Part shown: one piece after another, positions 2,168-24,008 of the stretch | Layout: every line of letters starts with the position of its first letter | Numbering within the stretch: the stretch's first letter is position 1 | Source: a virus | Taxonomy: Duplodnaviria > Caudoviricetes | Direction: 5' to 3' (one strand) | DNA length: 64,000 nt | IMG/VR virus record: IMGVR_UViG_3300025392_000002 | The notes under the pieces: model-generated | Seen by the model: the letters and a program-made list of their open reading frames with translations, nothing else | What the model was told of the DNA's origin: nothing | The model's database searches: none | Program-made: the position numbers and the translations under genes

Positions 2168-3616
2168 ATGAGTGAATATAATAAAGATAAAGATAACAAA
2201 GCAAGACAGAACGTAGACTATGGCTACGATATCCAGCGTGTATATTTAGAAATGATGTTGGCAGATGCTGGCACATTTGTACGATGTCAAAGCATTTTTG
2301 ATAGTACATTATTTGATAGAAAACTGCAAGATGCGGCGGCATATTTGACTAATTTTGTCACAGAGAACAATGCATTGCCTACTCCTGAAATCTTAAATGC
2401 GGCAACTGGTGCAAACTTAAAGCCAGCAGAGAATCTACGTGATGAACATTTTGAATGGCTAATGAATGACTTTGAAACATTTACTAGACACAAAGGACTA
2501 GAGCGAGCAATCCTTGAAAGTGCCGACTTATTGGAAAAAGGCGAGTATGGTCCGGTAGAAGAAAAGATTAAAAAAGCAGTTCAAGTAGGCTTGCAACGTG
2601 ACATGGGTACAGATTATTTTGAAGACCCGAGGGCACGTCTCATGCGTATTAAAGATAAGAACGGGCAAATTTCAACAGGATGGAAAAGCATCGACGATAA
2701 ACTTTACGGTGGTTTCAATCGTGGCGAGCTTAACATATGGGCTGGTGGGTCTGGTGCTGGAAAATCTTTGTTTCTTGCTAATCTTGGGGTCAATTATGCT
2801 ACTGCTGGACTCAATGTACTATATCTAACATTAGAACTTAGTGAAGAACTAGTGAGTATGCGTGTGGATAGTATGCTCACAGGAATCCCTGCAAGAGAGA
2901 TTTTTAAGAGCATCGATGATGTGGAAATGAAAGTTAAAATGATTGGTAAGAAATCTGGTCAATTCCAGGTCAAGTACATGCCAAGTGGTAAGACAGCAAA
3001 TGATGTTCGTGCTTACATGAAAGAGTATGAAATCAAAATGGGTCGTAAGATTGATGTATTGCTACTGGATTATATGGACTTGATTATGCCAGTGAGCAAG
3101 CGTATTAGTGCTGAAAACTTGTTTGTTAAGGACAAGTATGTATCGGAAGAATTGCGTAATTTGGCGGTAGAAAAGAACTGTGTGTTTGTTACTGCGGCAC
3201 AGTTGAATCGTGGAGCAGTTGAAGAAGTTGAGTTTGACCACAGTCATATTTCAGGCGGATTAAGTAAGATTCAGACAGCTGATAATGTGTTTGGTATCTT
3301 CACTAGTCGTGCTATGCGTGAGCGTGGACGCTATCAAATCCAGCTAATGAAGACACGTTCTAGCAGTGGTGTTGGTATGAAGATTGATTTGGAATTTAAT
3401 ATTGATACACTACGCATCAGCGACTTGGATGAACAAGATGGTTACGGAAGCGGAAGTCCAAGTGCAGGGTCTACATTGTTGAATAGTATCAAACAACGAC
3501 AAACTGTAGCAGAAAATCCTGCCGATGGAGCATCGTTACCTAAGGTCAGGGCTCAAGTTGAAAGTACAAAACTTAGAGAATTATTAAACAATTTACCTGG
3601 AGATGACCTGGTGTAA
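2168..3616 (+). CDS. replicative DNA helicase (T4 gp41/DnaB-like)
   Basis: Walker A GGSGAGKS, TLEL, LLDYMD, AAQLNR, MKTR. Confidence 0.93.
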   Translation: MSEYNKDKDNKARQNVDYGYDIQRVYLEMMLADAGTFVRCQSIFDSTLFDRKLQDAAAYLTNFVTENNALPTPEILNAATGANLKPAENLRDEHFEWLMNDFETFTRHKGLERAILESADLLEKGEYGPVEEKIKKAVQVGLQRDMGTDYFEDPRARLMRIKDKNGQISTGWKSIDDKLYGGFNRGELNIWAGGSGAGKSLFLANLGVNYATAGLNVLYLTLELSEELVSMRVDSMLTGIPAREIFKSIDDVEMKVKMIGKKSGQFQVKYMPSGKTANDVRAYMKEYEIKMGRKIDVLLLDYMDLIMPVSKRISAENLFVKDKYVSEELRNLAVEKNCVFVTAAQLNRGAVEEVEFDHSHISGGLSKIQTADNVFGIFTSRAMRERGRYQIQLMKTRSSSGVGMKIDLEFNIDTLRISDLDEQDGYGSGSPSAGSTLLNSIKQRQTVAENPADGASLPKVRAQVESTKLRELLNNLPGDDLV

Positions 3617-14972: not shown

Positions 14973-15014
14973 AAGTATCGCTCCTTATTTGCTGTTGAAG
15001 TAGTAATTATACAG

Positions 15015-15305
15015 TTAAGCCAGCTCTTTGTCAACCAGGGTCAGCATGTTGGCAGGCACTCTCCACAGGCCCATGCCCGTGTTGACTGTGACGTATTTGA
15101 TGGCCACTTTGGTTACGAACCCACGTGTCGCTCTGCCTGTCTTGCTGGATGTGAACTCTACGTTGTCGCCTACACGGATCGAACGTTTGATCTGCTTGGC
15201 TAGGTTAGTACGGTTCCATTTGACTGCATCTATCATTGACGTCAACTCAGTGTTGGTCCAAGACTGTAGCATGATTGCTGAGTTTACTTCTTGAATGGTT
15301 AGCAT
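15015..15305 (-). CDS. hypothetical early protein (SH3/KOW-like C-terminus)
   Basis: RVGDNVEF...G.VTKV..KYV.V...WRVP; promoter and RBS. Confidence 0.7.
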   Translation of the reverse strand: MLTIQEVNSAIMLQSWTNTELTSMIDAVKWNRTNLAKQIKRSIRVGDNVEFTSSKTGRATRGFVTKVAIKYVTVNTGMGLWRVPANMLTLVDKELA

Positions 15306-15348
15306 AGTATCGCTCCTATTTTCTGTTTAAGTGTTTATTATACTAGAT

Positions 15349-15435
15349 TTATTGCCATCCGTCAACCACTAGGATTGCTAGGAACATGACAATGACGGGG
15401 CTCATTAGGATGAGCAAGTTGATGTAAGCCTGCAT
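15349..15435 (-). CDS. 28-aa membrane micropeptide MQAYINLLILMSPVIVMFLAILVVDGWQ
   Basis: Hand translated; TAATG-coupled to upstream gene, GAGG RBS. Confidence 0.5.
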   Translation of the reverse strand: MQAYINLLILMSPVIVMFLAILVVDGWQ

Positions 15436-16133
15436 TATGCTACCTCTTTCAAACGAATTACGAAACCGGAATAGTCCTTCTTAGCACGACCCTTGGCCTT
15501 GAGTCCAAGCATCACGCCCTTAGGGTCTAAGAAGCGCAAGTCTGTCTCATCAGCTGACGGAGTGCCTGCTGGGATCTCATCATATACGGCTACGACTGAC
15601 ATACCTTGCATTAATGCTTCCGCTACATCCGAATCATTTCCGTCTGCCTTGCTGAATGTAAGGTGATAGTTCTTGTACTTAGACACCTTACGACCGAGCA
15701 CCTTAGTGTAGTCATAGAACTGTACATTAGGGAACAATTCAAAGATGTTCTTGTCGTTGATAGTGTACTTCTCCCAGCTCAAGTCGCTAGTACCATTCAA
15801 ACGGAATACAGGGATCAAGCCACGCTTCTCAGCGAACTTGATAGCCTTAGTGATGTCTTCGTACAGATCCTGCATGAAGTAGTCACGGGCTTCAAAGAAG
15901 TACTTGGTCTTGCGGATGCGAGCCTTTTGGATCATATTGGTGTTCTCGCCCCGTTTGAACATACCGCCACGTCCGGCAGTGTTAAGGCAAGCGGCAGTAC
16001 AGCCTGCGGTGCGCTTAGGGCAAGTCTCACGCCCTGACAAGTCTGCTGGTGCCAAATGTAGGATGAAAGACAGATAACCCATCTTAGTACCTTTTTGGAT
16101 CTTAGGGTTTGCTGTGGACAATAATTTAAACAT
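15435..16133 (-). CDS. phage GP88-family protein (Cys-rich, radical-SAM-like)
   Basis: LHLAP, CP..T.GC...CL, RLNGTSDL, FYDYTK, DLRFLDP, GLKAKG. Confidence 0.75.
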   Translation of the reverse strand: MFKLLSTANPKIQKGTKMGYLSFILHLAPADLSGRETCPKRTAGCTAACLNTAGRGGMFKRGENTNMIQKARIRKTKYFFEARDYFMQDLYEDITKAIKFAEKRGLIPVFRLNGTSDLSWEKYTINDKNIFELFPNVQFYDYTKVLGRKVSKYKNYHLTFSKADGNDSDVAEALMQGMSVVAVYDEIPAGTPSADETDLRFLDPKGVMLGLKAKGRAKKDYSGFVIRLKEVA

Positions 16134-16200
16134 AGTTTTCGCTCCTATTGTTTGCTGTTGATATGACTATTATACTGCCTTTTGGGTTGGGCGTCAACCA

Positions 16201-16431
16201 TTAATCCCAATCTTTCTTGCCGCCAAACTGTTCATTCCACTGGTAGCCTGCTAGGTAGGCTTGGATCTCACTGGGCGTCATTTGGCTTTGATCAATGCGC
16301 TCTGAAGTGCCAGTGCCTTCTGTATAGAAGTGAGGGTTGCGTGGACGATGATACCATGAATCTGCTGAGCCCCTATCAAAGGCTCCACCATGGCGGGTAT
16401 CGTACTGCTCGCGGGTTAGTTCTTTAATCAT
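16201..16431 (-). CDS. hypothetical early protein (HGGAFDRGSADSWY)
   Basis: ORF coupled to upstream gene. Confidence 0.7.
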   Translation of the reverse strand: MIKELTREQYDTRHGGAFDRGSADSWYHRPRNPHFYTEGTGTSERIDQSQMTPSEIQAYLAGYQWNEQFGGKKDWD

Positions 16432-16760
16432 ACTGTCTCCTTAAGTGTCAATGTCTTAGCAGGATAAGTGATGGAACCTTCATACTCCAACTGTGACCGC
16501 TCAAATGGAGTCATGAAGCTATCCTCTACGATACCGTAGCCTACGATATACTGACGGCTACCAATGTCGTCCCACTCGATCTGCTCACGGAGCACAAAGA
16601 TCAACTCTTCGATGTGCTCTGCGCTAGGCTCCACTGAACCCAACTGATAGAAGAAGTCCTCACCACCTTTGAACTTCCAGTACTGTGGGCACTCACCTTG
16701 GCCGTCCCAATCATGGGCACCGTAGTTTTCCATGTATTGGGTAGTGATGTGTAGCTTCAT
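16428..16760 (-). CDS. hypothetical early protein (TQYMENYGAHDW...YWKFKGG)
   Basis: Promoter and AGGAGCGA RBS. Confidence 0.75.
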   Translation of the reverse strand: MKLHITTQYMENYGAHDWDGQGECPQYWKFKGGEDFFYQLGSVEPSAEHIEELIFVLREQIEWDDIGSRQYIVGYGIVEDSFMTPFERSQLEYEGSITYPAKTLTLKETV

Positions 16761-16831
16761 TAGGTTCGCTCCTTATTTGCTGTTGATGTTAGTATTATAG
16801 CAAGATTGGGCAGAGTTGTCAACACCTATTT

Positions 16832-16901
16832 GCAAAATAGATCGGCCGAGTGGGCACCTAGATTACACGCCCAGCGATGCCGTCCATCCCGTCGCCTTCG
16901 A
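16832..16901 (-). ncRNA. putative short RNA from a gene-less promoter
   Basis: Perfect TTGACA-17-TATAAT (16936-16908) with no RBS downstream; shares GGGATGGACG with the 24.07 kb copy. Confidence 0.35.
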
Positions 16902-17018
16902 ATCATAATTATACTGGATTGGGCGGGGATTGTCAAGTCGCCGAAACCAAAAAAAAACGACACATCTTTGGGACGTGTCGTCGTAGTCAACGTGTTGTAT
17001 TTCTACAACACCTTTGTA

Positions 17019-17531
17019 TCAGTTTGCGCGGGCTAGTTCTTCAAATGAACTACACTCGTAGCCGTGAAACTTAACAATATGATCATAGGGTTTGTGATAA
17101 CTGTATACTACTTTGCCCACGCCTGAACTAGGGTGAATGGTGATGTTGCGACTCCACATGCTCTTAGGCAAGAAATAGAATTTGAGTCCGTCTTTGTGGG
17201 GATTGTACACAGTACAGCGAAGGGCTCCTTCTTTACGACCACCGCCCGCTGTTTCAACTCCTGTAATTTCACCGCCATAACTATTGCCACCGAGTTTAAG
17301 TGGATTAGCTCGTATGCTAGCAGTCTTAGAATCTGTGCCGTCGCTAAAGTCAGCATGATCGCCGTCGATGAAACGGTATGGGCCCACTGCGGCAAGGCTT
17401 TCTTCAATTAGACGCTCTACATTAAAGATATCAGGGTGCTTGACACCGTACGCACGAAGATCCTTACTGGCCCGGAATTCAGGATGATAAACACAGATTA
17501 CATCTCTCATCAGTACTAGACTCTTTGACAT
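17019..17531 (-). CDS. putative PD-(D/E)xK restriction-endonuclease-like protein
   Basis: E...ADFSDGTDSKT motif; own promoter and RBS. Confidence 0.45.
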   Translation of the reverse strand: MSKSLVLMRDVICVYHPEFRASKDLRAYGVKHPDIFNVERLIEESLAAVGPYRFIDGDHADFSDGTDSKTASIRANPLKLGGNSYGGEITGVETAGGGRKEGALRCTVYNPHKDGLKFYFLPKSMWSRNITIHPSSGVGKVVYSYHKPYDHIVKFHGYECSSFEELARAN

Positions 17532-17606
17532 GGTTCGCTCCTATGTGTTGTTTAAGTCTTAATTGTATAGCCAAAAAATAACCCAGTCAACCGCTGGGTT
17601 ATTGAA

Positions 17607-17683
17607 TGGTGGGCCCACCTGGACTCGAACCAGGGACCAAAGGATTATGAGTCCTCTGCTCTAACCAACTGAGCTATAGGCCC
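17607..17683 (-). tRNA. tRNA with CAT anticodon, Ile2 (lysidine)-like; elongator Met not excluded
   Basis: GGGCCTATAGCTCAGTTGGTTAGAGCAGAGGACTCATAATCCTTTGGTCCCTGGTTCGAGTCCAGGTGGGCCCACCA; full cloverleaf, encoded CCA. Confidence 0.93.
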
Positions 17684-17856
17684 TGATATCGTTTAACTTC
17701 TCTCAAGTCATCATCCTTGTCTTCCAGGATGTAGACTTCATCACAGAACTCTCGTTCGTTTTCTGCGATCTCTTCGGCTTCTCTAAGGGTGGGCACACAC
17801 TCAATCAGCTCTTCATGCTGATCTCGTATGCCCCAGATCTCATACTGTAGAAACAT
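17674..17856 (-). CDS. small acidic hypothetical protein
   Basis: ORF; stop lies in the 5' end of the tRNA. Confidence 0.55.
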   Translation of the reverse strand: MFLQYEIWGIRDQHEELIECVPTLREAEEIAENEREFCDEVYILEDKDDDLREVKRYQGL

Positions 17857-17857
17857 C

Positions 17858-18205
17858 TTAGAAAGGAGCGTCTTCGTCCTCAGTTACCTTAGCAGTAGCT
17901 TTGACTGCTGGAGTCTTTGTTGCCTTGGTAGCAACAGGCTTGGAGACCTTAGCCTTAGGTGAGTTGTCTTCAATGTATTCAGTGATGGTAGACTGCGCTA
18001 CTGCATCAGCAAAATCTTCAAGACCTAGGATGATCTTAGCGGCATCCATCTTAGAGAAAGAACCTTCAAGATCTGCCAAACGGATGTCTTCATGGCCGCT
18101 CTTAGCGAGAACCTTGATACGCATCATATCGTTAGCAAAGCGAACTTTGTAGTCGCCATTGAGCTTGCTAATACCTGCAACTGTGAATAATTTATCTGTA
18201 GCCAT
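17858..18205 (-). CDS. hypothetical protein (KVRFAND..RIKVL.K.GH), K/A-rich tail
   Basis: Promoter and GAGG RBS. Confidence 0.7.
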   Translation of the reverse strand: MATDKLFTVAGISKLNGDYKVRFANDMMRIKVLAKSGHEDIRLADLEGSFSKMDAAKIILGLEDFADAVAQSTITEYIEDNSPKAKVSKPVATKATKTPAVKATAKVTEDEDAPF

Positions 18206-18292
18206 TTGTTACCTCTATGTGTGTGTTAAAAAATATGTTATTGAGCCAATCTCTCTAACATGTTCAAATTATACAACTCTTTTGGTTAGTTG

Positions 18293-18556
18293 TCAACCAT
18301 TTCTCTTCTGTTTTGGGCGAATTTTTGGTTGTTGCGTTTTCACAACATTCTTAAACTCCTTTTGAATATAGTATTCAATCAAAGCTCTTTGAATCATAGT
18401 TACCAAATCAACTCCATGGTCCTCAGGACAGATAAAACGATACGGACTAGACTTCCAACTGCGTTCAGTAACGAACTTATAATAGATCTGACGATGCTCT
18501 CGTAGACTAGGGTCAAACGCAACCAATGGCCTACTTAGGAATTCTAGTCTACTCAT
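18293..18556 (-). CDS. hypothetical early protein
   Basis: Likely start MSRLEF, coupled to upstream ORF. Confidence 0.65.
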   Translation of the reverse strand: MSRLEFLSRPLVAFDPSLREHRQIYYKFVTERSWKSSPYRFICPEDHGVDLVTMIQRALIEYYIQKEFKNVVKTQQPKIRPKQKRNG

Positions 18557-18681
18557 TTGGCAAGAACCCACGCCCTCACTACTTCTTCAAGGGCTGTAAA
18601 TTTGTAGTCAACTGGCTTAGGGCGTACCTTAGCAGTCATCCTAGCATTATGCTCTAGGTTCTTTTCTTTATTGGTTTTCAT
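18553..18681 (-). CDS. 42-aa hypothetical protein
   Basis: Hand translated MKTNKEK...RAWVLAK, downstream of promoter at 18734. Confidence 0.55.
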   Translation of the reverse strand: MKTNKEKNLEHNARMTAKVRPKPVDYKFTALEEVVRAWVLAK

Positions 18682-18742
18682 TGCTGTTCCATTTGTTGTT
18701 GTTAAACCTAATTATACTGCCTTTTGGGTAGGCAGTCAACCA

Positions 18743-19315
18743 TTACTCTTCGGACTCTTCTTCGTATTCAGCAATGGATTCGGAGATGCCCATGATCTCA
18801 TCAAGATCTCTAGGCAGTTCTGTTTCTACCTGCTCCGATGTCATACCGCCCACTTCATAGTAGTCGTCACCATTCTCATCATAGATACCAGCAAAGGCCA
18901 TGCCACACTCATAGTAGAACGCCCTAAGGGTATAACCCTGCTCCATCAATGCTTCGTAGACTCCACAAGGAGGTGCCCAGGCTGAATCAAAGCCAAAGGT
19001 GATACCATTCTTGTCATGCTGGTCGTCATACTCTACCTTGTCGTAAGGATCCACATCCCACTTAGTTCCCCATTCGTTTACGCAGAAGTCATACCAGTTC
19101 TTGTAGCCATACTTCTCTTCGTTGATGACCTCTTGGGCCTCTAACTTCTTCTGATCGTCTGGATCACCAAGTTTGCCTGCTGTGATACCTAAATCTTCTG
19201 GAACAGGAATAGCAAAGTTACAGAACTTGCCTTCGTTAATGGCCTCAACCAAGGCATACATCTTGGCAGGGTCTTCGTGATTAATTTGAACTGTGTTATT
19301 GCACCAATTAGGCAT
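18743..19315 (-). CDS. Api92/YubB ferredoxin-like domain protein
   Basis: MPNWCNN, WYDF...WGTKWD, FDSAWAPP. Confidence 0.75.
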   Translation of the reverse strand: MPNWCNNTVQINHEDPAKMYALVEAINEGKFCNFAIPVPEDLGITAGKLGDPDDQKKLEAQEVINEEKYGYKNWYDFCVNEWGTKWDVDPYDKVEYDDQHDKNGITFGFDSAWAPPCGVYEALMEQGYTLRAFYYECGMAFAGIYDENGDDYYEVGGMTSEQVETELPRDLDEIMGISESIAEYEEESEE

Positions 19316-19487
19316 TGTCGGCTCCTAGGTTAATTACTTGGGTTGTCTGATATTCGAAACTCTTAGTCTGGGGTCTAACATCTCCCAAAGACAGGGCAAA
19401 GATGTCCTCTGCCTCGTCTTGATCCTCTGCTTCTACCACGCCTTCGTAGTAGACTTCTTCATAGGCTGTCACTTGGAACTTGGGCAT
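19308..19487 (-). CDS. 59-aa acidic hypothetical protein
   Basis: Hand translated MPKFQVTAYEE... Confidence 0.55.
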   Translation of the reverse strand: MPKFQVTAYEEVYYEGVVEAEDQDEAEDIFALSLGDVRPQTKSFEYQTTQVINLGADNA

Positions 19488-19488
19488 C

Positions 19489-19755
19489 TTAGACTCCCAT
19501 TTCGTAAAAGGTTACTGAAGGATCAATGCTGAGCAATTCCTCAGCACAACGAGTAAGATTACGCATCTTGGAACGAACCACTGACTGAGGCAGTTCGCCA
19601 TCGCAGGTAAGGTTCTCTGGGCTCATCTCGCTGTCAATGTAGTTGGCAATAGCCTGGCGATCTGCACCGTTCAACAAGCTCAAAGGCTTTTGGTTGAATA
19701 CGGCACGCCATTTGTTCTTGTTCTCTACATACTGCTCTAGTGTGCTAATGTTCAT
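19489..19755 (-). CDS. hypothetical early protein (SPENLTCDGE)
   Basis: Promoter and AGGAGCGA RBS. Confidence 0.75.
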   Translation of the reverse strand: MNISTLEQYVENKNKWRAVFNQKPLSLLNGADRQAIANYIDSEMSPENLTCDGELPQSVVRSKMRNLTRCAEELLSIDPSVTFYEMGV

Positions 19756-19794
19756 AAAGTTCGCTCCTTATGTGTTGTTGAAGTAGTTATTATA

Positions 19795-20043
19795 CTAGAT
19801 TTTACGGATCTTGTCAATAACCATGTTCGCTTCCTGGTTATTGCTTAGGGCTAGGTTAGCCTCTAGATCTAGCTCTTGGGAGCGTAAGAGTAGCTCACGA
19901 CTGTAAGCGTCCATGAGCTCTTGGGCATAGATCTTGTCATCTTCGTCGGCCTGTGCAAACCAAGCCTTAAAGTCATCGCCCTTAGTGTTGAGCAAGAACT
20001 CTAGGTTGTCCCTGTCCCATTCGTTGGTGATTAGGCCTTTCAT
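19795..20043 (-). CDS. hypothetical early protein
   Basis: ORF with RBS. Confidence 0.65.
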   Translation of the reverse strand: MKGLITNEWDRDNLEFLLNTKGDDFKAWFAQADEDDKIYAQELMDAYSRELLLRSQELDLEANLALSNNQEANMVIDKIRKI

Positions 20044-20183
20044 TCGTCGCGTCCTTTGTGTTTAGGGTTGCGTTTAAATGCTTTCTTGTTTTCCACCCGC
20101 TTAGGTTTGAAGGGTGTATTCTCACAGAAGAGCACGAAATGTGCTCGGGTCTTCTGTGGTATTTTTACAACGATCTTCATCAT
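20040..20183 (-). CDS. 47-aa basic protein, ArfA-like
   Basis: Hand translated; LF..NTPFKPKRVENKKAFKRNPKHK; promoter and AGGAG RBS. Confidence 0.5.
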   Translation of the reverse strand: MMKIVVKIPQKTRAHFVLFCENTPFKPKRVENKKAFKRNPKHKGRDE

Positions 20184-20230
20184 GTGCTCCTGTCTGTATA
20201 AATGTATTATACAACCAAAAGCTCAAAATG

Positions 20231-20419
20231 TCAAGCGCCGTAATACGTTGTTTCGTCCTGCTCAATGCCGTTGAGTTGCATCCATGCGTAGACATACTCT
20301 ACAGGCACATCTAGGGTCTTGGCAATGTTCTTTTCAGTCAAGCCCTCGATGTACAGTTGTTCAATATCATAGGCATACATATCTAGTTCAGCCATCTTAC
20401 TCATCAAAGCTCTCCTCAC
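20231..20419 (-). CDS. small HTH-like protein
   Basis: EGLTEKNIAKTLDVPVEYV. Confidence 0.55.
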   Translation of the reverse strand: MRRALMSKMAELDMYAYDIEQLYIEGLTEKNIAKTLDVPVEYVYAWMQLNGIEQDETTYYGA

Positions 20420-20612
20420 CCATCTCTGTTACTTTCTCTTCCACAACGCCAAGGTCGACGATGCGGGCTGTTTGATCTGTATTGCTTACACCTTGGAAGG
20501 CTGTGCGGAATGACTGATTCTCTGCGAGGAAATCAAACACATCCTCACGAGCCCAGCTATCGGGTACCTCAAGCTCTTGTATCAATAGCGTTTCAACTCT
20601 AACTGTTTTCAT
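20397..20612 (-). CDS. hypothetical protein
   Basis: Likely start MKTVRV (AAGGAG RBS); upstream start at 20669 possible. Confidence 0.55.
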   Translation of the reverse strand: MKTVRVETLLIQELEVPDSWAREDVFDFLAENQSFRTAFQGVSNTDQTARIVDLGVVEEKVTEMGEESFDE

Positions 20613-20665
20613 ACCAGCTCCTTTAAGTTTAGCAAGGGCCTGAGCCCTCTTTGATTGAAACCCTG

Positions 20666-21157
20666 TCATTCTGCACACTCTTTTGGATCGAGCTTGGCAA
20701 TAGCTGGGGCAAGTTTCTTCCAACGCTCGCCGTTGCGCTTGTAGTGCCACTCGCCTACTGTGTAGTCGCTTGCCTTAGTATACTTGAAGACATAGTAGTA
20801 GTCGCTCCAAGTATAGTGATCGCAAGCCTTAGCAAGTGTATCAAACACTTTAAAGCCAACGTCTGCTTCGCCTCTGTCGCGTCCGTAAAATGTACAGGAG
20901 TCGCCGTGCTCTGCTTCGTAAGCCTCTTGCTCTTCCTTAGTCAAATCAAATGTGCTGAATGCGTGTTGTACACCAATCTCTTTGCGCAAGCTACTCAAGT
21001 CGCCCAGGGCAATCAAGTTGTTGACTTTAGGGCTTGCTGAATAGTGTTTCTGCAAGATAGCGCCGTTGTGTTCCAAGTACCCATCCCAGTGGCAGTAGAC
21101 TGCGCGAACTGTTTTGTTGTAAGGGTTTTGAATAGCAATCATTGAACGTGTACCCAT
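20666..21157 (-). CDS. hypothetical phage protein (MGTRS...YCHWDGY)
   Basis: Promoter and RBS; start corrected to MGTRS. Confidence 0.75.
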   Translation of the reverse strand: MGTRSMIAIQNPYNKTVRAVYCHWDGYLEHNGAILQKHYSASPKVNNLIALGDLSSLRKEIGVQHAFSTFDLTKEEQEAYEAEHGDSCTFYGRDRGEADVGFKVFDTLAKACDHYTWSDYYYVFKYTKASDYTVGEWHYKRNGERWKKLAPAIAKLDPKECAE

Positions 21158-21216
21158 TTGCTCAGCTCCTTGTGTGTTTGTGTATGTGTTTATTATAGCG
21201 CCTTTTGGGCACCCAG

Positions 21217-21435
21217 TCAACCTTCAAGCCAACAATCCCTGGCCAGCTCTGTGGTTATTGTTTCGCCGCCGATGTAGTCCCCATGGAACCCGCTTGGGCT
21301 AATACTTTCCAGGACTAGGGCCTTGCCTGTGTAGCTCTGCTTGATCTCTACAATCTTGCCCGATTGCTCAATGTCGCATTTGAAATTGACAACATCTCCT
21401 ACAGTGACCTCTTGTCCGTCTACCAGTGCTTTCAT
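21217..21435 (-). CDS. hypothetical early protein
   Basis: ORF, stop inside next -35 box. Confidence 0.65.
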   Translation of the reverse strand: MKALVDGQEVTVGDVVNFKCDIEQSGKIVEIKQSYTGKALVLESISPSGFHGDYIGGETITTELARDCWLEG

Positions 21436-21602
21436 TCTGCCTCCGCTGGTTCAAACATACGAGCACCCATGTCCATAAAGACGTCAAATGTCTTAAGGAA
21501 GTCCTCATCGTACTTGTGACGGTTAACTTTGATGGCAAACAGGCCTACTAGAAGGTCTCCATTGCCTACTTCTTTCGCTACTTTTACCAGATGATCAAAC
21601 AT
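21432..21602 (-). CDS. 56-aa hypothetical protein
   Basis: Hand translated MFDHLVK...; promoter and AGGAGCGA RBS. Confidence 0.65.
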   Translation of the reverse strand: MFDHLVKVAKEVGNGDLLVGLFAIKVNRHKYDEDFLKTFDVFMDMGARMFEPAEAE

Positions 21603-21661
21603 AAGTTTCGCTCCTTATTGTTACTGTTAAAAATATATTATACAACCAAAATCAGTTACTG

Positions 21662-21993
21662 TCAACCAGGGATGCTACAAGGTAGCTTATCATCGTTTGA
21701 CCCCAGCGACAGTAATTAGATTGGGCGGGCAGAGCGTGCTCCTCGTTTAATGTTCAGCCCACTGGCCAACACCCTGTAACCGTACAGTTAGGGAAGAACT
21801 AAAGGGGCTCCGGACTAGGCGCTAGTACCGTCTACTAGATCGTCTGCCTTCGCTATTACTGCCTACTTACTATCGCCGCTTCTCCGAGCCTAAGCCCTGT
21901 TTCATGCCCCAGTTCAAGCGTATCCGTCGATACTGTCCTCTACCTGGGCGCCTAGCGATGTAGGTAACCTTTAATGCTTTCCTAACTGTCTAT
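21662..21993 (-). ncRNA. putative ~330-nt structured non-coding RNA
   Basis: Own TTGACA-17-TATAAT promoter, no ORF of 60 aa or more; long-range stem ACAGTTAGG/CCTAACTGT and many internal helices. Confidence 0.6.
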
Positions 21994-22032
21994 GTGCTTA
22001 TTATAGCACATAGACCCTAACCTGTCAATAAC

Positions 22033-22104
22033 CTATTGTTTTGGACGGTCTTTACAAACTTCAAATCCCTTCCAGTGCCACTTTCTGCAATAGGTACATT
22101 CCAT
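22033..22104 (-). CDS. 23-aa Cys/His micropeptide MECTYCRKWHWKGFEVCKDRPKQ
   Basis: Own promoter and AAGGAG RBS. Confidence 0.55.
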   Translation of the reverse strand: MECTYCRKWHWKGFEVCKDRPKQ

Positions 22105-22172
22105 TGTCTGCTCCTTTGTTGCTAAGTCTTTATTATAGCGCCAAACGAGCAGACTGTCAATAACCTTTCAAT

Positions 22173-22511
22173 TTACTCAACTTCTTCTTCATCCACTTCG
22201 TTCAAGTAGTCAAAGCATTCTTGTACACGACTTGACTCTGTGTTGAAGAATGTATAGTCTCCACAGACCATGCGTCCTTCACCCTCTTTGATGTACTCAA
22301 AGCCACCATAGTAGTCAATAGCACTGGGAGAGTTTTGGACAGCAATCACTTCCTCATCCCTATCAATGTACACAGGACCACAGCGTACATCCAGACCCAA
22401 CTCTGTAGGACTGCATCGTTCCATCTTGCGTACATGACGCTCCACAACCTCGTTGACTGCGTCAATCATGTCCAATGTGCTGTCAAAGTCTGTATCAGTA
22501 AAGTAACCCAT
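22173..22511 (-). CDS. hypothetical early protein (YYGGFEY)
   Basis: Promoter and AGGAGCGA RBS. Confidence 0.75.
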   Translation of the reverse strand: MGYFTDTDFDSTLDMIDAVNEVVERHVRKMERCSPTELGLDVRCGPVYIDRDEEVIAVQNSPSAIDYYGGFEYIKEGEGRMVCGDYTFFNTESSRVQECFDYLNEVDEEEVE

Positions 22512-22567
22512 TTGGTTCGCTCCTTAATGTGTTTAAGTGTTAATTATAGCACCATCTAGCCAAACTG

Positions 22568-22777
22568 TCAACCGCAAAACACTTCTTTAGACAAGATCCG
22601 GTCCTCAACCAGCTCGTGTGCCAAGTTAAGGGCCATAGTGGCTACGGTGATAGCAATAATGCGCTCTTGCCCATTAAAGCGTTGACAGTACTCCATCAGC
22701 TGGTCCAAGCTCTCTGGGGTTGCAAACAATCCGGTCTTTGGGATTGGGTTTTGAACAACGTCGTAAATGCCTGACAT
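22568..22777 (-). CDS. hypothetical early protein
   Basis: Promoter and AGGAGCGA RBS. Confidence 0.7.
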   Translation of the reverse strand: MSGIYDVVQNPIPKTGLFATPESLDQLMEYCQRFNGQERIIAITVATMALNLAHELVEDRILSKEVFCG

Positions 22778-22834
22778 AAGTATCGCTCCTTTTGTTAGTT
22801 GATGTTAGTATTATAGCTGAATCTGGGTTACCTG

Positions 22835-23053
22835 TCAACCAAATGCCTTGAATAACCCTACTAGGCATATGGCTATTGAAACTGCATTTGTTACTAGTTG
22901 TGGAGTGTTGCGCACACGTATGCTCCACACCAAGTAACATGCCCCTCCAAGTACTCCAGCCACAATGTTCCAGGGGTACTGGTTCATTGACATTAATGCG
23001 TACATGGCAAGGAAGCAGGCAGTGCCCGCCCACTGTATTATGCTATTAAACAT
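22835..23053 (-). CDS. small 3-TM membrane protein
   Basis: Hydrophobic helices; likely start MFNSII. Confidence 0.6.
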   Translation of the reverse strand: MFNSIIQWAGTACFLAMYALMSMNQYPWNIVAGVLGGACYLVWSIRVRNTPQLVTNAVSIAICLVGLFKAFG

Positions 23054-23432
23054 CAATGCACTCTCTCCAAACGGTGTACAAGTGTGCTTCGTCCAAACGC
23101 TCAAGTCCTGCTAAAAACTTGGCACCCACGTCCAAGCTAACGTACTCGTCATCCTGCATACCCTGCTCGCTGTACTCCACGTCCATAGCTTCTGCTTCTG
23201 TAAAGCCAATTGTCTGCAAGTACACACGTAATTGAGCTTTGAATAGCGGGTCTGTGTAAATTAATCCGTCTACTGTACAGTCCCAGCTAGCAGGGCTAAA
23301 GTGTACGCACAGCTCGCCAAAGTCCTTCTCAACGTTGCAGTACTGCAAGCGCAGTCCAGTAATGTCTACACGGGCCTGCTTGCGTGACCAGTAGCCGGTA
23401 CCGCTTGTTTGTAGTGTTGTAAAAACATTCAT
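23046..23432 (-). CDS. hypothetical early protein (GLIYTD...YSEQGMQ)
   Basis: Promoter and AGGAGCGA RBS. Confidence 0.75.
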   Translation of the reverse strand: MNVFTTLQTSGTGYWSRKQARVDITGLRLQYCNVEKDFGELCVHFSPASWDCTVDGLIYTDPLFKAQLRVYLQTIGFTEAEAMDVEYSEQGMQDDEYVSLDVGAKFLAGLERLDEAHLYTVWRECIDV

Positions 23433-23463
23433 AAGTTTCGCTCCTTAAAAAACAATTATAACA

Positions 23464-23619
23464 TTAATCCACGTAGTAGTCAACCGTTTGCAATAGTGTG
23501 CTCATTGCGTTCTCTACCTCGTTAAAGCACTCCAGTTCCGCCAGTTGTGCCCCATCGCATGTTGCTTCTAACAGCATAGCTTCCACTTCCGCTAGTTTAA
23601 CAAGTATTGCATCTTTCAT
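23464..23619 (-). CDS. 51-aa acidic hypothetical protein
   Basis: Hand translated MKDAILVK...TVDYYVD; promoter and RBS. Confidence 0.6.
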   Translation of the reverse strand: MKDAILVKLAEVEAMLLEATCDGAQLAELECFNEVENAMSTLLQTVDYYVD

Positions 23620-23693
23620 TTGTGCTCCTTAAAAACTAATTATAGCACACTTTGAGAACTTTGTCAAAATGCGCTATGTATTAACCCTACAGC

Positions 23694-23918
23694 TTACTCT
23701 ACTATTTGAATGTTGTTAGTGCGCAGAGTTTGCTGTGCTGTTAGCAACACACGGGGCAAGTCTGTTGCAATAGTTTCTGCGGGCAAATCTCCGCTGACAA
23801 AGGCACTATTACGCTGAGTAATGCTTTCGTTTGCGTTGCAGAATGCTACAAGAAGTTTATAGCATTTGAGTTTTTTGTTGTACTGTACTTTAGCACGAGC
23901 TACGCAATTTGTAAACAT
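23694..23918 (-). CDS. hypothetical early protein
   Basis: Likely start MFTNCV (AAAGGA RBS); first gene of the array. Confidence 0.6.
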   Translation of the reverse strand: MFTNCVARAKVQYNKKLKCYKLLVAFCNANESITQRNSAFVSGDLPAETIATDLPRVLLTAQQTLRTNNIQIVE

Positions 23919-24008
23919 ATGAGTCCTTTTGTGTGTGTATGTAGTTATTATACTGGATTTTGGCAAGAGTGTCAATAACATATCTTTTGAAGGGTCTCTC
24001 TGACCCGG

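Follow-up and report, generated by a model that had tools for sequence, protein, structure and literature searches.

The window analysed here, a 64-kb stretch of DNA (64,000 nucleotides), is part of an uncultivated tailed phage and encodes virion and tail proteins, a DnaB-type helicase, a primase-like Toprim protein and nucleases. Its early region occupies 15006-23975 on the minus strand. All 13 exact TTGACA-N17-TATAAT promoters of the window lie within these 9 kb and on the minus strand, against 0.08 expected by chance, and one to three small ORFs stand behind each. A DNA search of the 15-kb early region against 50,697 isolated phages returned the tRNA-Met gene as its sole match and no close DNA relative of the window; this tRNA-Met gene is 86-94% identical to those of Acinetobacter and Pseudomonas phages. 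The structured RNA described below lies behind one of the promoters, in the following setting:

17607-17683, minus strand: tRNA-Met(CAU), 72.6 bits, the sole tRNA of the window (ARAGORN)
21637-21665, minus strand: promoter of the next cassette, exact consensus, driving a 56-codon ORF at 21602-21432
21666-21706, minus strand: accessory hairpin D2b, CUGGGG-UCAAACGAUGAUAA-GCUAC-CUU-GUAGC-AU-CCCUGG, just 5' of the next promoter
21703-21780, minus strand: accessory module D2a, two hairpins followed by GCCCGCCCAAUCUAAUU (nhmmer)
21718-21708: motif CCAAUCUAAUU, also found 3' of the core RNA in relatives L021, L022, L015 and L117
21784-21989, minus strand: core structured RNA, helices P1-P8, 206 nt (covariance model, covariation and MFE)
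22000-22028, minus strand: sigma70-type promoter of the RNA, with TTGACA at 22028-22023, a 17-nt spacer and a TG-extended TATAAT at 22005-22000

A first-pass annotation had read this locus as a promoter-driven, non-coding, highly structured RNA in a cassette of its own that matches no described family, and this reading is borne out. The perfect promoter that it claimed is an exact TTGACA-N17-TATAAT at 22028-22000 on the minus strand with a TG preceding the -10 element. The stretch of 334 nt past this promoter is free of credible ORFs, also as claimed: the longest stop-free minus-strand frame before the next promoter (21665-21637) spans 39 codons, and no ORF with a start codon reaches 40 aa between the two promoters. 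Transcription would begin at about 21994-21992, 3-5 nt 5' of helix P1. A scan of 21300-22300 for intrinsic terminators gave 0 terminator-like sites, none between the RNA and the 56-codon ORF. The core RNA has a GC content of 51.5% (window, 41.7%) and is separated by 4.1 kb from the nearest tRNA, the tRNA-Met gene.

The promoter of the RNA has two further features. A perfect 11-bp inverted repeat, GTCTATGTGCT / AGCACATAGAC at 22015-22005 and 21998-21988 on the minus strand, flanks the -10 element and the start site. The repeat reads GTTCATGTGCT / AGCACATGAAC in L001, L021, L004, L022 and L002, so its two arms have changed together; it is absent from homologues L044, L153 and L127. The repeat is a putative operator at which a dimeric repressor could switch the promoter off. 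Directly 5' of the RNA promoter, at 22104-22033 on the minus strand, is a 23-codon micro-ORF, MECTYCRKWHWKGFEVCKDRPKQ, with a CxxC motif and one further Cys; its ribosome-binding site is a strong one of the AAGGAG type, and it has an exact promoter to itself at 22160-22132. The end of this micro-ORF is also found 5' of the RNA in L001 and L008, and a variant of it in L022 and L117.

Two search strategies were used to collect relatives of the RNA. With the two flanking proteins as bait, 91 IMG/VR loci were retrieved, and nhmmer detected a conserved non-coding stretch in many of them, which in every case shared its strand with the bait gene. A further 66 loci came from scanning IMG/VR with a pattern derived from the invariant segments, in which GGTTAMCWASNYYNNTAGG is followed by GTAATG after 60-90 nt. 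Removal of duplicates left 58 distinct homologues on IMG/VR viral contigs, or 59 sequences with the window, whose identity to the window RNA ranges from 91% down to barely alignable. Across them 21 columns are invariant and another 13 are conserved in at least 90% of sequences; almost all of these columns fall in GGUUA.C.A, UAGG, CA.GAA, GUAAUG and (A)GACG, and they are located mostly in junction strands and hairpin loops. The core RNA is non-coding and conserved over the 59 sequences: the homologues have a median longest ORF of 22 codons, and the lengths of their matches, between 169 and 233 nt, give no sign of steps of three.

The family appears to be restricted to phages, within the limits of an exact pattern, since the same pattern matched only seven times in 185,579 bacterial and archaeal genomes and none of the seven was confirmed by the covariance model described below. 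Searches of isolated-phage DNA were similarly negative. The window RNA has no match by DNA similarity among the 50,697 isolated phages, and a tRNA-linked homologue matches isolated-phage DNA at its tRNA-Glu only. A syntenic protein partner was sought by clustering 2157 neighbouring ORFs; small early proteins were found to be shared, none of them at a fixed distance or in a fixed order. The core RNA is an autonomous, single-copy unit with no neighbouring protein at a fixed position. Related phages carry its gene neighbours in shuffled arrangements, which suggests that whole cassettes recombine as units.

The fold of the core was derived from a hand-made structure on 18 sequences of one subgroup, which was converted into a covariance model, R1, with 55 pairs over 185 positions. 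R1 finds 59 full-length matches in loci totalling 1.04 Mb, and in the window cmsearch places the sole copy at 21976-21799 (P2 to P2') with 87.1 bits and E = 8e-22. In the R1 alignment of the 59 sequences, 92.0% of cells form standard pairs, as compared with 64.1% after shuffling, where none of 500 shuffles came as high, and 36-40% after a slide of the partners by 1-3 columns, although these pair counts are somewhat inflated because the alignment is fitted to the structure. Changes on both sides, that is, compensatory changes, occur at 47 of the 55 pairs, and the covariation score is 0.555 versus 0.166.

A covariance-model alignment leans towards its model, and for this reason a mutual-information scan and a plain MAFFT alignment were added. 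The 15 highest corrected pairs in the scan of all column pairs all belong to proposed helices. When the 11 sequences of the subgroup to which the window belongs were aligned by MAFFT and scored on a structure taking in P1 and the subgroup-specific P7/P8, 93.2% of cells are paired versus 81.9% after shuffling, and 31 of 57 pairs show compensatory changes. The MAFFT counts and the slide controls argue that the signal is not created by the model-fitted alignment. Kinship among sequences can by itself beat shuffles without any structure; the independent pair types seen per column, up to five, argue against a signal of kinship only. When RNAalifold was applied to the raw MAFFT alignment of 58 sequences, misalignment of the variable arms left it with only 5 pairs, and this approach was replaced by subgroup folding, the hand structure and the covariance model. 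In folding energy, the whole 334 nt is no more stable than its shuffles (z = +0.42), whereas the 206-nt core alone has a z of -2.35, with 3 of 200 shuffles as stable. The conserved RNA is about 206 nt, rather than the roughly 330 nt given in the first-pass annotation.

The predicted fold, which is strongly supported by covariation, starts from the closing helix P1/P2, beyond which a junction joins two domains, P3-P6 and P7-P8. Its parts, all on the minus strand, are:

21968-21989, minus strand: closing helix, 5' strand (P1 21989-21981, P1b 21979-21977, P2 21974-21968)
21862-21964, minus strand: 5' domain, P3-P6, in which P3/P3a (21964-21954 with 21877-21862) encloses the rest
21951-21944 with 21912-21906, minus strand: P4 of the P4/P5 arm, which carries the P5 hairpin at 21933-21920 with loop GACG
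21899-21884, minus strand: P6 hairpin, following the invariant CAUGAA
21854-21861, minus strand: junction J3/7, CAGUAAUA, with CAGUAAU in the window and GUAAUG in most relatives
21807-21853, minus strand: 3' domain, P7 (21853-21842 with 21820-21807) and the P8 hairpin (21838-21822)
21784-21805, minus strand: closing helix, 3' strand (P2 21805-21799, P1b 21796-21794, P1 21792-21784)

The closing helix P1/P2 comprises 20-23 bp, and its P2 segment has compensatory changes at 5 of 7 pairs. The sequence of this helix is wholly different among subgroups; for example, the window has ACAGUUAGGAAAGCAUUAAAGG where the tRNA-linked group has ACCAUACUAAAAUACAUUAGG. Furthermore, the median duplex energy is -24.3 kcal/mol when each strand is paired with its own partner, versus -9.6 with partners from other groups and -10.4 with shuffled strands. 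The stem ACAGUUAGG..UUAAAGG / CCUUUAG..CCUAACUGU, by which the first-pass annotation closed its domain 1 (21989-21784), is backed by covariation, and the boundaries of that domain had been read correctly. J2/3, the joining strand, is UUA in the window.

The 5'-domain helices hold the pairs of highest mutual information. P3/P3a encloses, in order, the invariant UAGG, the P4/P5 arm, the invariant CAUGAA and the P6 hairpin. P3a is 100% paired, and compensatory pairs number 4 of 5 in P3a, 7 of 8 in P4, 7 of 7 in P5 and 4 of 4 in P6, which corresponds to helices 6 and 7 of the R1 model. In relatives P6 is of variable length and is usually capped by a GNRA or UUCG tetraloop. J3/7 is the most conserved single-stranded stretch of the family, its G, U, A, A and U being invariant in 58 sequences. 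In the 3' domain, P7 bears a GAA/GGA internal loop; P7 and P7b are 92-94% paired in the group-A alignment with 6 of 10 pairs compensatory, and P8 has compensatory changes at 5 of 6 pairs. The P8 loop is GACGG in the window, and across the family it contains GAC in 55 of 59 sequences and GAU in 2 more. The two hairpin loops, P5 and P8, both present GACG.

All of the nested helices of domain 1 that had been proposed are present with covariation, including CCUAC/GUAGG, AUCGCU/GGCGAU, GUAUC-GACG-GAUAC and CUAGUA/UACUAG. One of them required adjustment: GCCCAG/CUGGGC exists as a helix, but its exact pairs are CCCAG/CUGGG plus a G-C and a C-G across one unpaired G. Two crossing helices that had been suggested as pseudoknots or a switch did not survive. 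Both exist as complementarity in the window sequence, and they were rejected because they show no covariation and compete with the covarying P6, P7 and P8; over the alignment 72.1% of their cells are paired versus 71.5% after shuffling, with one compensatory pair. The two central pairs of CUAGGCGC/GCGCCUAG hold in only 1 and 3 of 11 sequences, and GGCUCGGA/UCC(G)GAGCC competes with P6 and P7. The mutual-information scan of the 59 sequences found no tertiary, kissing or other Watson-Crick covarying pairs beyond the nested helices.

The second domain of the first-pass annotation, closed by CAGGG/CCCUG, also dissolves, its CAGGG strand lying in a module of four lineages and CCCUG in a separate hairpin. 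By nhmmer, D2a is found 3' of the core only in the window, L001, L002 and the L044/L079 lineage, where it always adjoins the core; its first hairpin has changed in a compensatory manner (UGUU..AACA in the window versus UGCC..GGCA in L002). D2b is nearly identical in L011 and L028, both of which are without the core RNA. D2b lies outside the conserved RNA and belongs with the next promoter cassette.

A strong link of the RNA to phage tRNA arrays was missed in the first reading. The homologous loci carry up to 25 tRNAs each, all on the strand of the RNA, and 28 of 57 loci have a same-strand tRNA no more than 300 nt away from the RNA. A tRNA-Glu(UUC) terminates exactly 8 nt ahead of the model start in 13 loci; at this spacing the end of the tRNA falls inside P1, and its ACCA pairs with UGGU at the 3' end of the RNA to make up the first four pairs of the closing helix. 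On the other side, the nearest downstream tRNA is tRNA-Asp(GUC) in 16 loci, tRNA-Lys(UUU) in 9 and tRNA-Glu in 3; in L153, L106 and L099 a gap of only about 0-10 nt separates P1 from the tRNA-Asp that follows. Three transcription settings can be distinguished. In 19 cases, the window included, the RNA has its own sigma70 promoter; in 11 it stands behind a promoter-driven RNA of about 85 nt; and in others it is part of a tRNA array. For the promoter-driven set (19 of 57 homologues; at most 2 mismatches, 17-nt spacer) the promoter is at a fixed distance from the RNA, with the end of the -10 element 23 nt, or 13-14 nt, ahead of the model start. The family, uncatalogued so far, sits in early regions and tRNA gene clusters of uncultivated phages.

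The loci of the core RNA hold at least four more uncatalogued RNA modules. The conserved structured RNA of about 85 nt, which runs from AAGGCGAUCCUC to GAGUUUGGAGACUC-GCCU, shows four stems in a tRNA-like outline, is preceded by a consensus promoter of its own and lies immediately 5' of the core in 11 relatives (L014, at about 3150-3236; also L020, L015, L032, L033, L063, L100, L104, L075, L077 and L006); it has no Rfam match at gathering score. At least two further modules of about 135-155 nt, each closed by a helix of 16-18 bp, for example UCAUUUGUUUUGCUGA...UCAGCAAAACAAAUGA and UCAUUGUUAAGUGUUAUC...GAUAACACUUAACAAUGA, stand back to back with the core, between it and the next tRNA (L152:11246-11403; L111, L107, L143, L101, L144 and others). 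A short hairpin motif, AAAGAGAG..CUCUC, recurs in the same interval. The motif CCAAUCUAAUU ends several different accessory modules just 5' of the next -35 box and may be a shared processing or 3'-end signal.

Comparison with described RNAs returned no relative. Rfam 15 comprises 4227 models, including GOLLD, ROOL, raiA, OLE, HEARO, 6S, RNase P and tmRNA as well as SRP, Y RNA, phage pRNA, riboswitches and small ribozymes. At gathering score the whole window matches tRNA-Met only, and at E<=10 region 21400-22300 yields only sR52 and mir-355, chance matches elsewhere; no family matches the core RNA, and the tRNA, tmRNA and RNase P models are negative. Fourteen homologous loci at gathering score gave 81 tRNAs and nothing on the core RNA, and a tRNA-linked homologue at E<=5 gave only its tRNA. 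ARAGORN likewise detects no tRNA or tmRNA at the RNA. In literature searches the core RNA was not found described, and GOLLD and ROOL came up as context only.

The closest parallels are in genomic setting. Phage T4 encodes rnaC and rnaD, its stable RNA species 1 and 2, within its tRNA cluster; they mature from tRNA precursor transcripts and have been known since the 1970s. GOLLD and ROOL are more recent, and we know of no established function for any of the four. Like the core RNA, rnaC and rnaD are non-tRNA, non-coding RNAs encoded on the same strand as, and back to back with, phage tRNA genes: rnaD begins 1 nt past a tRNA-Arg and rnaC 6 nt further. They exemplify the tRNA-abutting position in a phage tRNA array that relatives of the core RNA also take up. 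On the other hand, they are 139 and 119 nt long as compared with 206 nt for the core RNA, and unlike them the core RNA family also occurs as a stand-alone promoter-driven cassette. With filters off, R1 finds no match on rnaC (70908-71046) or rnaD (71053-71171) in T4 68000-75000, the best score in this 7-kb region being 10.5 bits, away from both genes. GOLLD and ROOL are structured RNAs of phages and prophages found "often near tRNA islands", for which function and partner protein are not known, and form homo-oligomeric cages by cryo-EM (PMC5737381; PMC12286853). They measure about 600-800 nt with many pseudoknots, in contrast to the 206 nt and purely nested supported fold of the core RNA, and their Rfam models match neither the window nor the 14 homologous loci. 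By these comparisons the core RNA appears comparable in setting to rnaC/rnaD, GOLLD and ROOL, yet unrelated to them.

Other known systems were compared with the core RNA. A T-box resembles it in idea only, as a structured RNA by tRNA genes with a codon-like loop triplet (GAC/GAU, an Asp codon); the core RNA differs in having no T-box Rfam match and no downstream regulated gene or antiterminator. For a retron msr-msd RNA one would expect long closing inverted repeats together with an adjacent reverse transcriptase gene; the core RNA has a long closing helix, and Pfam found no RT domain among the 30 larger ORFs of the window, and the clustered neighbouring ORFs include no recurrent neighbour of RT size. 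A CsrA/RsmA sponge, with several A(N)GGA loops, was rejected: the conserved loops are GACG or GCCG (P5) and (A/G)GACG (P8), and GGA triplets lie in helices or junctions of the supported fold. A riboswitch or other cis-regulatory leader was also set aside, given variable downstream neighbours, a next gene with its own promoter and the lack of a terminator.

The reading that we favour, with a probability of roughly 0.6, is that the core at 21989-21784 is the gene for a stable, trans-acting RNA of an undescribed family of uncultivated phages that is released by processing. Host RNA polymerase would transcribe it early and at high level. The mature core RNA would be cut from a longer, predicted transcript, its ends and stability being predicted as well. 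Release by processing is inferred because no terminator follows the core RNA and because its ends coincide with tRNA ends in relatives. The long closing helix could serve as a handle for both processing and stability, and likely routes are cleavage of the duplex by an RNase III-type enzyme and cutting at adjacent tRNAs by enzymes of the RNase P/E type, as happens with other RNAs that form part of tRNA precursors. A defined tertiary surface, made up of the conserved junction core and the two GACG loops, would bind a factor of the tRNA/translation sphere, from host or phage, in the service of host takeover or counter-defence. That the partner comes from this sphere is a best guess, by genomic neighbourhood and analogy only. 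One specific form of such binding, in which the GAC loops dock in trans onto tRNA-Asp(GUC) by capturing its anticodon loop, and may engage another tRNA as well, much as a T-box specifier would if it acted in trans, is a long shot: between the P8 loop and the tRNA-Asp anticodon loop the invariant GAC:GUC complementarity is all that was found, and the flanks do not covary. If it were true, tRNAs could be shielded or sequestered during infection, for example from host anticodon nucleases, or translation could be retuned.

Several other explanations have to be weighed against this one. The genomic position of the RNA fits a cis-acting processing or insulator element without trans function that helps neighbouring tRNAs and mRNAs to be cut and folded. 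The RNA is packed against tRNAs, the tRNA-Glu ACCA even pairing into the closing helix and tRNA-Asp following within about 0-10 nt of P1 in three loci (those named above), no terminator follows it, and its long perfect duplex is a putative RNase III site. We nevertheless consider this unlikely, since a spacer would have no need of some 34 invariant or near-invariant junction and loop nucleotides, and eight covarying helices are kept over the three transcription contexts. Moreover, the dedicated promoter of 19 homologues lies exactly at the 5' end of P1, which argues that the RNA itself is the product. The clustering of conserved nucleotides in junctions, as in catalytic cores, and the immediate proximity of tRNA 3' and 5' ends suggest instead a ribozyme that cleaves itself to free flanking tRNA ends or acts on tRNA precursors. 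This is distinctly improbable: no Rfam ribozyme family matches even at E<=10, conservation singles out no candidate cleavage site, and the promoter-driven copies have nothing upstream to free.

Self-assembly offers a further possibility, in which an RNA-only particle, an oligomer held by loop and helix contacts, is the functional form as a scaffold or cage. The RNA shares its genomic niche with GOLLD and ROOL (PMC5737381; PMC12286853), has no linked gene for a protein partner, displays the same motif in two loops and has a long, rigid closing helix. However, its size is only a third to a quarter of that of ROOL or GOLLD, its conserved GACG loops are not self-complementary, and mutual information over the 59 sequences shows no Watson-Crick covariation outside the nested helices, so that this model, too, is an unlikely one, on a par with the cis-acting element. 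A cis-regulatory leader of the riboswitch or attenuator type, acting on downstream genes, is the least probable of these readings. Same-strand ORFs do lie downstream with no terminator between, but the downstream gene has its own exact consensus promoter, the downstream neighbours differ from locus to locus (unrelated ORF families, tRNAs, other RNA modules), and no expression platform is conserved, D2a and D2b not being family-wide.

With this family, phage tRNA islands gain a compact RNA of about 200 nt with strong covariation, of a size that suits structure determination and mutational work. The family occurs both as a stand-alone early gene with a consensus Escherichia coli-type promoter and as a fusion to the 3' end of tRNA-Glu, and these natural designs could separate trans function from processing. 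The target of the core RNA, if found, could show why phages put structured RNAs beside tRNAs, and it may bear on tRNA-directed defence and counter-defence.
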